Shown: positions 50,961 through 64,000, counted from the stretch's first letter. The stretch: 64,000 nucleotides of DNA from Candidatus Poribacteria bacterium (GCA_965208675.1 OZ242351.1:1088001-1152000); one strand, 5' to 3'. Notes: a model not told the origin generated them from the letters alone. Numbers and translations: made by a program.

Positions 50961-51087
50961 AACAATATGATAGCACCATCACAGGTCGAAAAAGGTGCGA
51001 ATTCCCAAACATTTTGGATAAGGTCTATGACGCATTCGCACACACATGAAGCCCCATTACGTCCAAAATTTGGAGGAGAGGTCGCGT

Positions 51088-52842
51088 ATGATTTATCGCA
51101 TTGCCGTGTTCACGGTAAGTCTCGCTTGTATTGCGTTGTACGCTAACGCTGAAGAGCAGATCCTCTTTGTGTCCGACCGAGACGGGAACAGTGAGATATA
51201 CAGGTATTTCCCCGGCGGCAGACCCAAGAGGCTTACATTTGACGAAGGACCGGATGGCAATCCAGCGCTATCCCCGAGTGGAAAATCAATGGCGTATGTC
51301 ACGACGATTAATCGGGTATCCCAAATCGCCGTGCTGGACTTCAACTCTCGCAAACCCCGGCAACTGACTTTTTCACCCAAGAGCGATGTCCATCCTACAT
51401 GGTCCCCGGACGGAAGACGAATCGCATTTTCGTCCAACCGCGACGGTGATTTCGATATTTATATCATGAATAGAAACGGGACGAACGCGATAAATATGAC
51501 CGATAATTCCCCCCTGCACGACGGATCGCCTCACTGGTCTCCAGCAAGCCAAAAGATTGTATTTACCTCTGAGCGGGATCGTCTAGCACCAAAAGATGTT
51601 TATGTGCTTGATTCCCAAGCTGGTAACCGGCGAAGACTCATCACTTCTTCATCATTTGCGTTCAATCCCAAATGGTCACCGAACGGGTCACTGATTGCGT
51701 ATTACTCTACGGACATGTCTGACACCTCACCGTCGACTACTCTTCTTTGGCGAGTGAAACCAGATGGTACAGAATTGGAAGTATTGGTGACTGAAGGGGA
51801 GTCAAATTCACATCCCAAATTTTCTCCTAATGGATCATCAATTGCGTTTGTGTCTGAGAGAAACTTTAACATGGACATTTATGCTTTAAACCTTGAAACC
51901 AAGGAGCTAATGCGCTTAACAACACATCTTGGCTTCGATTCGCACCCCGATTGGTCTCCAGATGGAGAACGGCTAGCCTTCCTTTCCAGCCGAGACGGGA
52001 ATTCAGATGTCTTTACAATGACTGTCAATGGAGGGTACATCACAAACCTGACTAAGAGCGGCATGAATGAGGGGTTTCCCACTTGGTCCCCTGACGGAGA
52101 AAAAATAGCGTTTAGTCGGTTAATGGGGGACAACAGCGTCAGGATTTACGCGGTTGATTCCGATGGTGATAATGAGGTTCAACTGGTTGACTTGCCAGTT
52201 GCCAACCTCTACCCTGTCTGGTCCCCGCGCGGGAACAGACTGGCTTTTGTGAATCTCCCGGAACGCGGAGACTCGAAATACCGTATTTATACGGTTGACC
52301 CCGATGGGATAAACCTACAAATTTTGTATGAAGATTTGCTCGAACCTATTAACGAAATTGCTTGGTCACACGATGAGTCTCAGATTATTTTTGGTCGAAC
52401 CAACAATGCAATCGCCTTTCTGGATACGGAGACAGGTGAAGTCCACTCAATAGATGTGCCTGTATGGAATCCCAGTTCCCTCGATTCGTCACCCGACGGG
52501 GAGGACATTGTCTTTTCAGCGTCAAAGCCAATCGAAAATCCGGTGCGGCGGTTAGGAGTCTTCATCATTGATACTGACGGAATGCTTCTACGAATCGTCC
52601 CGACTGACCTGCCGATAACGTTGTTGAACCAAGGGCTTTCGTGGTCTCCCGACGGGAATACAATTCTCGTCAGTGACGAAGAAGGCATATACACGCTTGA
52701 CTTGGACACCGAATCCGTTGAGCTATTCATCGAATCTGCCAGTTATCCGGATTGGCAAGATCCGTCTCTCCCGCGCGCGGTCACTCCTCAGAACAAGCTG
52801 AATACCACATGGGGTGAGATGAAAACCGACGAAACGCGTTGA
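51088..52842 (+). CDS. Secreted TolB-like propeller protein 7
   Basis: ATG at 51088 follows GGAGGAG. Closest to protein 6 over most of its length. Ends AVTPQNKLNTTWGEMK. Confidence 0.88.
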   Translation: MIYRIAVFTVSLACIALYANAEEQILFVSDRDGNSEIYRYFPGGRPKRLTFDEGPDGNPALSPSGKSMAYVTTINRVSQIAVLDFNSRKPRQLTFSPKSDVHPTWSPDGRRIAFSSNRDGDFDIYIMNRNGTNAINMTDNSPLHDGSPHWSPASQKIVFTSERDRLAPKDVYVLDSQAGNRRRLITSSSFAFNPKWSPNGSLIAYYSTDMSDTSPSTTLLWRVKPDGTELEVLVTEGESNSHPKFSPNGSSIAFVSERNFNMDIYALNLETKELMRLTTHLGFDSHPDWSPDGERLAFLSSRDGNSDVFTMTVNGGYITNLTKSGMNEGFPTWSPDGEKIAFSRLMGDNSVRIYAVDSDGDNEVQLVDLPVANLYPVWSPRGNRLAFVNLPERGDSKYRIYTVDPDGINLQILYEDLLEPINEIAWSHDESQIIFGRTNNAIAFLDTETGEVHSIDVPVWNPSSLDSSPDGEDIVFSASKPIENPVRRLGVFIIDTDGMLLRIVPTDLPITLLNQGLSWSPDGNTILVSDEEGIYTLDLDTESVELFIESASYPDWQDPSLPRAVTPQNKLNTTWGEMKTDETR

Positions 52843-60090: not shown

Positions 60091-60117
60091 TTAGCACTCT
60101 TCTTCAAAGAGTGCTAA
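60091..60117. promoter_or_regulatory. CIRCE operator
   Basis: Perfect TTAGCACTC-N9-GAGTGCTAA immediately upstream of hrcA. Confidence 0.97.
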
Positions 60118-60291: not shown

Positions 60292-61080
60292 TCACCCATG
60301 GACTGCGTCTGCAAATCTCTTCATCAACGAAATGGAGTTTTGCTGTTCAATGACGTTTCCTGTCACGATAAAGTCCGCCCCGGCGTTGACCTTTGCAACC
60401 GCCATCTCGGGCGTAGTGATTCCTCCACCCACTATGATAGGGATAGTGACATGTTTGCGAACTGCGCCGATTATTTCGTCGGGAACCGGTATTTTTGCAC
60501 CGCTGCCCGCCTCAAGGTAGATGAACTTCATACCGAGATACTCTGCGGCAAGCGCGTGCGCCCACGCAATGTCCAATTTATCACGCGGGAGCGGGGCGGT
60601 CCCGCTCATAACTTCAACCGAAGTAGCGGTACCACCGTCAATAAGCATATACCCTGTGGATATCGCCTCTATACCACAACGGTGAATCAATGGCGCCGCT
60701 TTAACCTGCTCGCCGATTAGAAAATTGGCATTCCGGCCGCTGATTAGGCTTAGATATAATATGGCATCGGCATGTTGGGATAGGTGCATAGAGTCCCCGG
60801 GGAACACAATGACCGGTAACGACGTCTCATCCCTCAAGGCCTTTGCAAACGGGTTGAGGTCATTTGTCAAGAGGCTGCTCCCCAGCAACAGTGCATCAAC
60901 TCCGGCTTCTTCCGCTTGATGCGCAGCATGAACGCAATCCGCGATGGAATGCCGATCCGGGTCTAAGAGTACGATGTAGCCTGCTCTGCATCTTGACAGG
61001 ACATTCCGTAGGTAATCTAAGGTTGAACCTGATTTCATGGGGTTAGGTGTTTGGAGATATGTTTTTTCAATTCTTCTCAC
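60292..61080 (-). CDS. Geranylgeranylglyceryl phosphate (GGGP) synthase, group II-like (start may be ATG 61038)
   Basis: 'LLDPD', 'FPG', 'SLISGRNANFLIGEQV', 'TGYMLIDGG', 'YLEAGSGA' and 'IVGGGI', all GGGP/HepGP synthase TIM-barrel motifs. Confidence 0.9.
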   Translation of the reverse strand: MRRIEKTYLQTPNPMKSGSTLDYLRNVLSRCRAGYIVLLDPDRHSIADCVHAAHQAEEAGVDALLLGSSLLTNDLNPFAKALRDETSLPVIVFPGDSMHLSQHADAILYLSLISGRNANFLIGEQVKAAPLIHRCGIEAISTGYMLIDGGTATSVEVMSGTAPLPRDKLDIAWAHALAAEYLGMKFIYLEAGSGAKIPVPDEIIGAVRKHVTIPIIVGGGITTPEMAVAKVNAGADFIVTGNVIEQQNSISLMKRFADAVHG

Positions 61081-61116
61081 GCCGCCATTGAATCTGATGG
61101 AATTAGACCGATTGCG

Positions 61117-62310
61117 TCAGAGCCATCCAGAGAGTATGAGATGTCTCAATTCCAGTAGTAAGCGTGGTTGGTGCATCAATACCGTCTTAAAAATCTGCGT
61201 CATGTTGACCTTGTCAGGCGGCATCTTTGACACCACCTCTGCACACTTGTCAAAAAGGTCATCACTGAATTTGAGCACACCATCTCGTATTCGGCAGACG
61301 TGCTTGAAATTACTGCCAATTTCCTTATCCCACCGGTTTTGATATTCGCTCAAAATCTTTGCGGACACATCTCCAATCTGGATTGCATTGACCGCAGCCT
61401 CGGCGGCAAATTGTCCCGAATACATTGCGTTTGCGATTCCACCGCCAGAAATAGGATCGCTATGGTGCGCCGCATCGCCAATCAGAGCGATTCCGTCTCC
61501 GACAATCTTGGGCAGGCTATTGCCTACCGGCACACATCCGACGACCTGCGCAAGAATTTTTCCGTGTGGAAATTTTCGTTTGACGAATTCATTTAGATAG
61601 TCGATGGCGAGCTTCCCGCCCTTGCCTGAGATTGTCCCGCCAATTCCGATGCCGACATTCGCAATGTCATCTCCCTTGGGGAAAACCCAGGCATAGCCTC
61701 GCGGCGCAAGCTCCCGCCCAAGGTAAAAATCGCAGAAATCGGGGATAATGTCGATCTTAGAAATTAAGTATTGGGCGCAAATGTCCACGTCCCGTAAATC
61801 GTGTGTGCTATCTATGCCCGCCCATCGAGCTACCTGCGATTCAATTCCGTCGGCGGCGATCACGACCTTCGCCTTGCATGAGTAGTCACGTCCGAAATAA
61901 CGGAATTCCACCCCGTTGACGAAACCGTCATCTGACTTGGAAACGGTAGTCACCCTGGCTTTAACAATTATGTCGGCACCCGCGTCCGCCGCCATTTCCG
62001 CCAAGACACGATCGAAGACCTTGCGCTCTAAAACATAACCGGCGCCCGGAAAATGGATTGTGGCGGGGGTTTCGTTTGGAGAAAAGATTCGAGCACCGTT
62101 AATCTCGCGCGAAACCCACGCCGGATCGGGCTGCACAAACTCGCACAGCGACGCTGTGCCAATCCCCTCCGCTCAACGCACGGGCGCCCCGATTTCCTGA
62201 CGTTTTTCCAACAATAAGACACGCAATCCATTATCTGCGGCAACCTTTGCTGCTATTGCGCCTCCAGGACCGGCACCGACAACAATGACATCATAGTCCG
62301 AGTGAAACAT
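61117..62310 (-). CDS. Geranylgeranyl reductase (digeranylgeranylglycerophospholipid reductase-like), 397 aa if the in-frame TGA at codon 46 is read through (probable Sec)
   Basis: Two track ORFs (62173-62418 and 61117-62136) share one frame. Joined they read [17 protein letters not shown]...[19 protein letters not shown]...ADGIES...[12 protein letters not shown]...[19 protein letters not shown]. The ATG overlaps the ferredoxin stop (TGATG). Confidence 0.85.
62143..62172 (-). promoter_or_regulatory. Candidate bacterial SECIS element
   Basis: The mRNA after UGA reads GCGGAGGGGAUUG-GCACAGC-GUC-GCUGUGC. This is a perfect 7-bp stem starting 14 nt after UGA, with the loop G at +21 followed by U. 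Confidence 0.6.
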
Positions 62311-62528
62311 CAAAAAAGTCCCCGTCCTTCGTATGCCGGGTAATACACCTTGCCGTTTCGTTCTAATGCAAGCACGCCTACCGGGCAACCTTTGATGCAC
62401 CGCGCACAGTCGGTACACTTTGGCTGGTCAATTTTCAGGTAAATATCAACGAGATCAATGATGTTCTCAGGACAGACGGCAACACAAGCCCCGCAATAAC
62501 TACAAAGTTCTTCGTCTATAAGAATCAT
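62310..62528 (-). CDS. 2x[4Fe-4S] ferredoxin
   Basis: [12 protein letters not shown] and [12 protein letters not shown]. Confidence 0.92.
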
Positions 62529-62639
62529 CGCATGCCTTTCCCGCTTGAGAACGTAATTTCTTCAGCGTGAGTTTCCTAATATTTGGATTCATTTAACGTT
62601 TAATGGTCAACTACTTTTCTTATGCATTTGCTATCGAAG

Positions 62640-63461
62640 TTAATTTATCGCTTGAAGCTGCTGACGGCGGGCGTGTTCATACAGTATTATTCCAGCGGCG
62701 ACCGCAACGTTCAAAGAGGATTGGCCGGGCGCCATAGGAATCTTGACAAGGTTGGTGCAGCGCTGGAGAATTTCTCTCCTGATTCCTTCGTTTTCATTTC
62801 CCACCACAATCGCCACGGGCGTAGTAAGTTCCAGATCATACAGGCTTTTGTTTGCCTTAGCGGTGGCACCGAGAATCTCAAATCCCGCCGAAATCAACTC
62901 GCGGAAATAATCTTCCGGCGACTCGCAAAATGCCAGTGAAATGCGCCCAACAGCCCCTCTCGCCGCTCGAACACAGTTCTTATGGTAGGGGTTTGCACCT
63001 TCTCCGATGAATACGACGCATTCAACTGCCGCCGCTTCAGCCGTGCGCAGCACCATGCCAAGGTTATCCGGATTGGTGATGCTATCAGCGATTAGCAGCA
63101 TACTCTCCGCGGACAAGTGAAAATTTGAAACGTTCCGGTAATTCATCCAAACCGATGCAACCACGGCTGGAACCGGTCTCGTGCTAGTAATGGTCCCCAT
63201 TATTCCGGAGCTAAGCATAAATGGTGCGAAATTTGCTGCAACGGCATTTTTCAGTAATGCAACCCCTAGGTCATTCGCCAACAGGTCGGGAGTGTAGAGG
63301 ATTTTGTCAACCGGTAACTTGTCATGAACTGCACGATTAACGAGTGTAACGCCTTCAACCACAAATCTCGACGCCTTCAACCTCCCGTTTAGAGAGGTGA
63401 GTTTGCGAAAGTCAGTGATGATAGGATGCTTCTTATTGTGTATAACCGCTCGGTTCGCCAC
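62640..63461 (-). CDS. TrmH/SpoU-family RNA methyltransferase
   Basis: 'NPDNLGMVLRTA', 'VVGNENEGI' and 'IPM...SSLNVAVAAGIILYE'. Confidence 0.9.
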   Translation of the reverse strand: MANRAVIHNKKHPIITDFRKLTSLNGRLKASRFVVEGVTLVNRAVHDKLPVDKILYTPDLLANDLGVALLKNAVAANFAPFMLSSGIMGTITSTRPVPAVVASVWMNYRNVSNFHLSAESMLLIADSITNPDNLGMVLRTAEAAAVECVVFIGEGANPYHKNCVRAARGAVGRISLAFCESPEDYFRELISAGFEILGATAKANKSLYDLELTTPVAIVVGNENEGIRREILQRCTNLVKIPMAPGQSSLNVAVAAGIILYEHARRQQLQAIN

Positions 63462-63467
63462 TTATGT

Positions 63468-64000
63468 CTATGGGGAAGATCCAAGGTAGATTGCCCCCAA
63501 TCCAATGAAAATGTCCCACTTCATCCATTTTTGAATCTTTGCGCTGTTGGCTTTAGAATCATTCCGCCAAAGCCGAAAGCCTAAATAGATTAAAACCAAA
63601 TCCACACCCACGATAACGGTTAAAAGATAATGCCACGAGTACCAATTCAGTAAATAAGGAATAGGACTGAACAGTATGACCGCGGTGATGAAGATGAGTG
63701 CAACCAGCACGGCAACTCGTTTTCCCCAAACAACCGGGATTGTACCTGCATCGTTCCGAACATCACCCTCCATATCCTCAATGTCTTTAATTATCTCTCT
63801 TGCGGTGGTAAACAGGAACGCAAATACCGCTGGAACGAACGTACCGTATACAGTCAGCACCGAGGTTCCTCCTACAATGAAAGTTAAACCTGTCAGTACC
63901 CCGACTAGGAGGTTACCGAATAATGGTGTCTGTTTCAAGCCGAACGCGTAAAAGCATAGACAACCGGACACGATGACGGTGATTACCGCTGTGGGCACGT
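63468..64000 (-). CDS. UbiA-family prenyltransferase, DGGGP synthase-like; 5' part lies outside the window
   Basis: 'LKQTPLFGNLLVG', 'REIIKDIEDMEGD' and 'TIPVVWG', with several TM helices. Clustered with the GGGP synthase. Confidence 0.8.
   Translation of the reverse strand, partial: VPTAVITVIVSGCLCFYAFGLKQTPLFGNLLVGVLTGLTFIVGGTSVLTVYGTFVPAVFAFLFTTAREIIKDIEDMEGDVRNDAGTIPVVWGKRVAVLVALIFITAVILFSPIPYLLNWYSWHYLLTVIVGVDLVLIYLGFRLWRNDSKANSAKIQKWMKWDIFIGLGAIYLGSSP

Follow-up and report, generated by a model that had tools for sequence, protein, structure and literature searches.

A candidate ether-lipid operon in Candidatus Poribacteria with a putative selenocysteine-containing geranylgeranyl reductase

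A gene cluster in a Candidatus Poribacteria genome raises the question of whether isoprenoid glycerol ether lipids of archaeal type can be made and saturated in this bacterium, and of how the saturating enzyme could be produced from a gene that is interrupted by a stop codon. The cluster lies at one end of a 64000 bp stretch of DNA, referred to here as the window (GenBank accession number OZ242351.1, assembly GCA_965208675.1; coordinates 1088001 to 1152000), the numbering of which is used below. It consists of five co-oriented genes on the minus strand of positions 60292–64000, encoding a geranylgeranylglyceryl phosphate synthase (GGGPS), a geranylgeranyl reductase (GGR), a ferredoxin, a SpoU-family methyltransferase and a UbiA-family prenyltransferase resembling digeranylgeranylglyceryl phosphate synthase (DGGGPS). 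The favoured interpretation, given a probability of about 0.72, is that these genes form a Poribacterial operon directing the synthesis of isoprenoid glycerol ether lipids, with saturation carried out by a ferredoxin-dependent, selenocysteine-containing GGR.

The GGGPS gene (60292–61080, minus strand) was identified as an open reading frame (ORF) of 262 codons from a GTG at 61080, but an ATG at 61038, giving 248 amino acids (aa), is the probable true start because the best 120 database relatives are mostly 248 aa long. These 120 homologues are all close relatives; few are named, all but one of those are Poribacteria, and no outside neighbours were found among them. The product matched PF01884 (PcrB) with 144.2 bits and exceeded the cut-offs of TIGR01769 (206.6 bits; cut-off 161.55) and NF003198 (274.3 bits; cut-off 247), and its top matches in the PDB were 4jej (179 bits) and 4mm1 (175 bits), both solved GGGPS structures. 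The original prediction, made from the nucleotide sequence alone, had assigned this gene to GGGPS and had noted a preference for a heptaprenyl substrate as a possible objection. The assignment is borne out by these scores, whereas the heptaprenyl model NF003197 gave only 19.8 bits against a cut-off of 260, and the heptaprenyl-type PcrB/HepGPS structures 4nae and 4naf 26 bits. On profile and structure matches, the synthase is thus a group II GGGPS and not of the heptaprenyl PcrB type.

The UbiA-family gene (63468–64000, minus strand) continues past the end of the window by 331 bases, so that the C-terminal 176 aa of a 287 aa protein are encoded in the window, and this part matched PF01040 with 68.5 bits. 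The nearest PDB entry to the full protein was 6m31, the DGGGPS of Methanocaldococcus jannaschii (135 bits, residues 9–284), followed by a chlorophyll synthase with 41 bits, and both Asp-rich motifs (NDxxDxxxD and DxxDxxxD) align with those of 6m31. DGGGPS models were also the best-scoring families, yet all scores fell under the curated cut-offs (NF009523, 237.4 against 269; NF009521, 223.9 against 296; NF009522, 171 against 353). The earlier assignment to DGGGPS therefore stands as to its nearest solved relative but not as to the curated thresholds, and the protein is described here as DGGGPS-like, a putative second-chain enzyme, for which the sequence matches provide support.

A second UbiA-family gene (UbiA2, 355 aa) was found 13 bases upstream of the DGGGPS-like gene (UbiA1), at what would be window positions 64345–65412 on the minus strand, and the two are likewise neighbours in four loci from another family. 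UbiA2 matched named prenyltransferase and chlorophyll synthase models weakly (56 bits or less), and its feature-based look-alikes are generic UbiA clusters of WOR-3, Zixibacteria and Bacteroidota.

The GGR gene (61117–62310, minus strand) spans 397 codons and a stop codon. Its product exceeded the cut-offs of the family models PF22578 (GGR_cat; 90.6 bits, cut-off 27) and TIGR02032 (236.6 bits, cut-off 158.8), and aligned over its full length with the Thermoplasma GGR structure 3oz2 (270 bits, E value 3.6e-79); an AlphaFold2 model had a predicted local distance difference test score (pLDDT) of 82.4 and a predicted template modelling score (pTM) of 0.84. The flavin adenine dinucleotide (FAD) motif GxGxxG (VGAGPGG) and a PxxYxWxFP-type cavity motif, so named in PMC10821996, are both present and aligned to 3oz2. 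Among solved enzymes the Thermoplasma GGR is the closest, and the protein is likewise closest to GGRs of Methanosarcinales type. The identification of GGR in the original prediction is thus upheld, but an in-frame TGA at codon 46 (62173–62175, minus strand) had been missed, and the gene is not one uninterrupted ORF under translation table 11.

The TGA, in the context PVR-TGA-AEG, corresponds to the cysteine of PVRCGEG in 3oz2, at the catalytic position (Cys47 of archaeal GGRs), and full-length relatives at 50–68% identity have PVRCAE at this site. The conserved catalytic cysteine beside the flavin is therefore not encoded in the window GGR, the codon being TGA. Selenocysteine (Sec) is a chemical analogue of cysteine, and if the TGA is read as Sec the window GGR would be a variant of the GGR family and not excluded from it. 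According to the review PMC10821996, all archaeal GGRs share this conserved cysteine, which the Sulfolobus acidocaldarius enzyme cannot do without, and the role of the residue is still called speculative. The TGA separates the GxGxxG motif, on its upstream side, from the remainder of the enzyme, and each fragment by itself would be non-functional.

Directly upstream of GGR is a gene for a 72 aa ferredoxin (62310–62528, minus strand) with Fer4 family matches and two 4Fe-4S motifs, the presumed electron donor of GGR, whose stop codon overlaps the GGR ATG by one base. The ferredoxin gene adjoins GGR in 27 of 30 Poribacteria loci (71–100% identity), and the two are fused in two genomes of another Poribacteria family as well as in many database proteins of 465–480 aa, some of them named Poribacteria. 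Because of this adjacency and the natural fusions, the ferredoxin is linked to GGR. Among 61 loci from outside Poribacteria, 59 have at least one ferredoxin motif just upstream of GGR. The adjacent ferredoxin and GGR genes had been likened to those of Methanosarcina, and the same upstream ferredoxin was indeed seen in GGR loci of Methanosarcinales type.

The distribution of the TGA was examined in a sample of 151 genomes of the phylum, with a GGR match threshold of E ≤ 1e-40. A GGR match was obtained in 41 genomes, and 31 of these have exactly this TGA, at 69–100% identity and all in four families of one order. In 30 of the 31 the match is full length with no other stop. Of the other ten, seven more distant genomes (50–67% identity) gave an uninterrupted full-length match, and three gave fragments or a broken gene. 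Across the 30 loci that were retrieved, the TGA falls in the same alignment column without exception. In a second sample of named records, it was present in 18 of 19 loci titled Poribacteria and in none of 61 others, all of which carry TGT or TGC at the site; the latter are mostly from Methanosarcinales, Methanoperedens and Archaeoglobi, with four Anaerolineae metagenome-assembled genomes (MAGs) and one Ignavibacteriaceae MAG.

Codons 1–45 of GGR showed 228 synonymous-only against 62 amino-acid-changing codon differences in 10 comparisons. On this codon pattern, purifying selection acts on the segment before the TGA in the frame used by the remainder of the gene, and both halves would be translated. 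TGA is not reassigned genome-wide, because it is the commonest stop codon, ending 20 of the 40 window ORFs of at least 250 aa, GGR itself included.

Apparent damage was seen in a few relatives. GGR is split in genome G009 (G009:C2:1265194-1266383), with extra stops in the first part, and carries an extra TAG in G112 (G112:C136:31529-32719), the one TGA-form genome with another stop. In G103, the DGGGPS-like gene is broken into two parts (G103:C1:1447470-1448302).

A hairpin resembling a bacterial selenocysteine insertion sequence (SECIS) is predicted at 62143–62159 on the minus strand, beginning 13 nt after the TGA, with a stem of 6–7 bp and a G at 62152 in the first or second loop position. 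In an alignment of 30 sequences (29 distinct), 97% of cells are paired and three pairs (17 cells) show compensatory changes. The covariation score was reached by none of 500 shuffles, and registers slid along the alignment pair at 10–61%. The stem is kept through coordinated codon changes, such as Thr..Cys to Ala..His (ACA..UGC to GCA..CAC). The loop G (alignment column 33) is invariant in all 30 sequences, and a G at the first or second apical loop position is the rule given for bacterial SECIS elements (PMC13582414). Six Poribacteria orthologues of the Cys type form only 1–4 of 7 pairs in the same columns, versus 6–7 in the 30 TGA forms.

The genome encodes all of selA, selB, selC (tRNA-Sec) and selD. 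ARAGORN identified one SeC-type tRNA directly beside selB (367.5 bits, cut-off 242.25), with selA (595.6 bits) next to selB. The selD gene (375.8 bits; G000:C1:4649539-4650462, minus strand, locus L045) has its own TGA at the known Sec/Cys site, in the context VKCAG-TGA-ASKLD. Across the phylum, selB was above its cut-off in 146 of the 151 genomes, and two of the five in which it was not matched are genomes of family f6 with a Cys-type GGR. Poribacteria are already listed among the phyla with Sec-type group 4 hydrogenases (PMC13582414), and the use of Sec in the phylum is not itself new. From the aligned codon, the hairpin and these genes, GGR appears to be a selenocysteine enzyme. Literature searches, in which one query was judged on the best 20 of 105 records, found no published report of a selenocysteine GGR.

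Several observations weigh against the interpretation as a whole. Genome-wide, there was no match for CarS, and no glycerol-1-phosphate dehydrogenase (G1PDH) was found, the best candidate being a GldA-like dehydrogenase with 79 bits against a cut-off of 413. The DGGGPS-like protein is under the curated cut-offs as described above, and saturation is not obligate in the pathway of the phylum because GGR was matched in 41 genomes whereas GGGPS was matched in 121 and the DGGGPS-like UbiA in 122. With respect to selenium, the hairpin is a short one within coding sequence, and the 64-nt single-sequence fold after the TGA is unremarkable (z −0.73; equalled or bettered by 47 of 200 shuffles). The case for a SECIS rests on covariation because the single-sequence fold energy is no different from that of shuffles. 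One genome with a TGA-form GGR (G147, 80% complete) has no selB match, and decoding of UGA as cysteine by SelC-like tRNAs with a downstream SECIS has been described (PMC13582414).

A search of the genome for the remaining pathway genes had been suggested in the original prediction, and yielded part of the set. The genome has CdsA and two polyprenyl synthases, one of which most resembles the short-chain IdsA/geranylgeranyl diphosphate synthases of archaea, below their cut-offs, but G1PDH and CarS are the genes that were not found. Five Fe-ADH_2 matches considered as G1PDH were rejected, as they correspond to the GldA-like protein, AroB or iron alcohol dehydrogenases. PlsY (PF02660) also had no match in the whole genome, and three PF01553 acyltransferase matches were above cut-off. 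The earlier proposal of saturated isoprenoid diethers is supported by the gene set, but G1PDH and CarS are missing from it and the lipid is a predicted product.

The strongest competing explanation, though an unlikely one, is that the enzymes are real but make no bulk membrane lipid, serving instead to form a minor prenylglycerol product, to act on other polyprenyl substrates such as the side chains of quinones or pigments, or to break down archaeal lipids taken up in the sponge. A minor prenylglycerol product is what PcrB makes in Bacillus. The lack of G1PDH and CarS matches and the patchy distribution of GGR fit such a role, as does the second UbiA in the operon. Moreover, enzymes of the GGR family are promiscuous (PMC6309074), and a catabolic role has been raised for bacteria without G1PDH (Coleman et al., PMC6431249). 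However, the synthase groups with group II GGGPS and not with the heptaprenyl type, and the GGGPS and DGGGPS-like genes are each retained in 21 of the 22 genera sampled. Of the four families in the order to which the window belongs, three show physical linkage of GGGPS, GGR, ferredoxin and UbiA, as does genus g9 of the fourth. Finally, unsaturated archaetidylglycerol was obtained in E. coli with the homologous pair from Cloacimonetes, although the same genes are missing in that group (Villanueva et al. 2021, PMC7852524).

From these distributions, the two ether-bond genes appear to be a trait of nearly the whole phylum, to which the ferredoxin-GGR module is an accessory. The main exception is genus g2, which belongs to the same family as the window: GGGPS, the DGGGPS-like gene and GGR were all unmatched in 19 of its 20 genomes (88–99% complete), which looks like a lineage-specific loss of the whole pathway. 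In the one g2 genome with these genes (G090), there is a TAA inside the GGGPS match.

An improbable alternative for the reductase is that the TGA is decoded but not as Sec, either as cysteine by a SelC-like tRNA or as tryptophan or cysteine by near-cognate readthrough, which would leave an ordinary Cys-type GGR with an unusual codon. The precedent for UGA read as cysteine is noted above, and the inserted residue is not readable from sequence alone. Against this, the tRNAs listed include only one of SeC type, that beside selB and selA, and one ordinary tRNA-Cys; selA, selB and selD are all intact genes, the last being of the Sec form as well. Were the codon read as cysteine, nothing would prevent its reversion to TGT or TGC, but the TGA has been kept across one clade at 69–100% identity. 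That the reductase gene has been split or is a pseudogene, or that the TGA reflects an error of assembly, is very improbable and already contradicted by the comparative data since, despite truncation by gene callers (the nearest database proteins are 292–345 aa without the FAD-binding N-terminus) and the damage in G009 and G112, the same single TGA is shared by 31 genomes, selection is purifying on both sides of it in one frame, the C-terminal piece alone has no GxGxxG FAD site, and contigs from four further sequencing runs have no indel and, among the 40 of 68 difference rows listed, no difference at 62173–62175.

The origin of the TGA form was considered using a quick maximum-likelihood tree of GGR with 49 rows, midpoint rooted, from which one Sec locus had been dropped by the extraction pattern. 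The 29 Sec rows form one clade with a support of 99 in the Shimodaira–Hasegawa-like approximate likelihood ratio test (SH-aLRT), nested among the Poribacterial Cys forms and following the family labels, while the archaeal sequences are on the opposite side of the tree. Such a topology is consistent with Cys having been replaced by Sec once, at the base of one order. Many close homologues of GGR are stored in the public protein collection as entries of 283–346 aa that lack the FAD-binding N-terminus. These short entries are consistent with gene callers restarting after the TGA, and with a GGR family that is systematically mis-annotated in public genomes.

If the operon directs the synthesis of saturated ether lipids with a Sec-containing GGR, the following route is predicted. 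GGGPS would place a geranylgeranyl chain on glycerol phosphate, the substrates and the stereochemistry of the glycerol being presumed, and UbiA1 would add the second chain to give two ether bonds. CdsA and bacterial head-group enzymes would replace the missing CarS and complete the phospholipid. The FAD of GGR would receive electrons from the translationally coupled 2x[4Fe-4S] ferredoxin, and the reduced GGR would hydrogenate the double bonds of the chains. UGA codon 46 would be decoded as Sec by SelB and tRNA-Sec, guided by the hairpin 13 nt downstream, and selenium would then sit beside the flavin in place of the catalytic Cys47 of other GGRs.

The window is part of a single contig of 4892038 bases, and the genome is 96.4% complete. 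As originally predicted, the five co-oriented genes are upstream of a CIRCE-hrcA-grpE-dnaK-dnaJ operon, with a perfect CIRCE (controlling inverted repeat of chaperone expression) at 60091–60117 on the downstream side of GGGPS, followed by hrcA, grpE, dnaK and dnaJ. Past the end of the window, the DGGGPS-like UbiA and the second UbiA are followed by genes for a polysaccharide deacetylase and by lpxD, skp, bamA, ilvE, lolD, lolC/E, lysS, prfB and lnt. The host is plainly a Gram-negative bacterium, because lpxD, bamA and lol genes are close to the ether-lipid cluster. It is a sponge-associated member of Candidatus Poribacteria, the stretch having been met again in sponge metagenomes from several studies, and in the NCBI taxonomy Poribacteria are placed among candidate phyla, outside the Fibrobacteres–Chlorobi–Bacteroidetes (FCB) group.

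A chimeric contig, against which a check of contig integrity had been advised, is unlikely because the genome is in one contig, the same gene order was found in single-contig genomes of the same genus, and the region 61100–62540 is spanned by DNA-type contigs from four other sequencing runs (four studies) with 11–27 substitutions and no indels.

The SpoU-family RNA 2'-O-methyltransferase gene (62640–63461, minus strand) lies between the UbiA and ferredoxin genes. Its product matched PF00588 with 129 bits and, although the original label of trmH is correct as to the SpoU family, it is closer to RlmB (TIGR00186, 129.5 bits, below the cut-off of 160.15) than to TrmH (62 bits). This gene is missing in loci L017 and L024–L027, where UbiA1 abuts the ferredoxin. 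Because several lineages keep the order UbiA2-UbiA1-ferredoxin-GGR-GGGPS without it, the methyltransferase is probably a passenger in the cluster, outside the pathway. Elsewhere in the window, a 598 aa ORF (51046–52842, plus strand) encodes a protein with a signal-like N-terminus and many TolB/WD40-like beta-propeller repeats ('SPDG..IAF.S.RDGN.DIY' units), as judged by eye from the translation.

Tentatively, and with a probability well below even, it is possible that Poribacteria inherited archaeal-type GGGPS and DGGGPS and build hybrid membranes with isoprenoid diethers, and that one order has selenium-dependent saturation via the first known selenocysteine GGR, which would mark the conserved GGR cysteine as redox- or proton-active and not structural. 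A natural replacement of Cys by Sec that is kept across a whole order would argue that the residue beside the flavin does chemistry, and the Cys and Sec orthologues provide a pair ready for mechanistic work. The bacterial selenoproteome would also gain an enzyme of lipid/isoprenoid metabolism, and standard gene calling would be seen to truncate GGR in many public genomes. The presence of GGGPS and DGGGPS-like genes in nearly all Poribacteria genera sampled suggests that exceptions to the lipid divide extend beyond the FCB group and, as the hosts are abundant sponge symbionts, lipid biomarkers found there could be misattributed to archaea.

The reductase shares with bacterial selenoproteins in which Sec replaces Cys, such as the SelD of this genome, an in-frame UGA where homologues have Cys, a stem-loop after it that carries a G in the loop, and the presence of selABCD in the genome. 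It differs from them in that GGR was not described as a selenoprotein family in the literature found. With the Thermoplasma acidophilum enzyme (3oz2), the window GGR has in common the GxGxxG motif, the PVR-C/U-xEG segment, the PxxYxWxFP-type stretch and a GDAA motif, but 3oz2 has Cys where the window gene has TGA, and the window protein is far under the Thermoplasmatales equivalog cut-off (300.6 against 780). In the literature consulted, nothing points to a ferredoxin partner of the Thermoplasma enzyme.

The co-occurrence of GGGPS and DGGGPS in FCB bacteria, on which the original prediction had drawn, was already on record (PMC7852524, PMC6431249). The Cloacimonetes, like the Poribacteria, have GGGPS, DGGGPS and GGR homologues and a bacterial CdsA, and are likewise without CarS and G1PDH (PMC7852524), a gene pattern that has been reported for most FCB phyla (PMC6431249). 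The main text of PMC7852524 does not mention Poribacteria, no paper discussing ether lipids in Poribacteria was found, and two general reviews are silent on this in the passages checked; the supplements of PMC7852524 and PMC6431249 may list Poribacteria. The gene content therefore supports an ether-lipid gene set of a known kind in a bacterium, in a phylum for which it seems not to have been reported so far. The Poribacterial set differs from that of Cloacimonetes in belonging to another phylum, in being clustered with a ferredoxin gene and in having a GGR of the TGA form, and its product is predicted from the genes.

The module closest in arrangement is that of Methanosarcina type, a GGR with an adjacent ferredoxin that was reportedly described by Isobe and colleagues in J Bacteriol in 2014. 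The same small 2x[4Fe-4S] ferredoxin is encoded directly upstream of GGR, and the GGRs are 42–49% identical over their full length. However, the 61 loci that include this type have Cys at the catalytic position where the Poribacterial gene has TGA, and in Poribacteria the archaeal-type module is carried by a Gram-negative bacterium.

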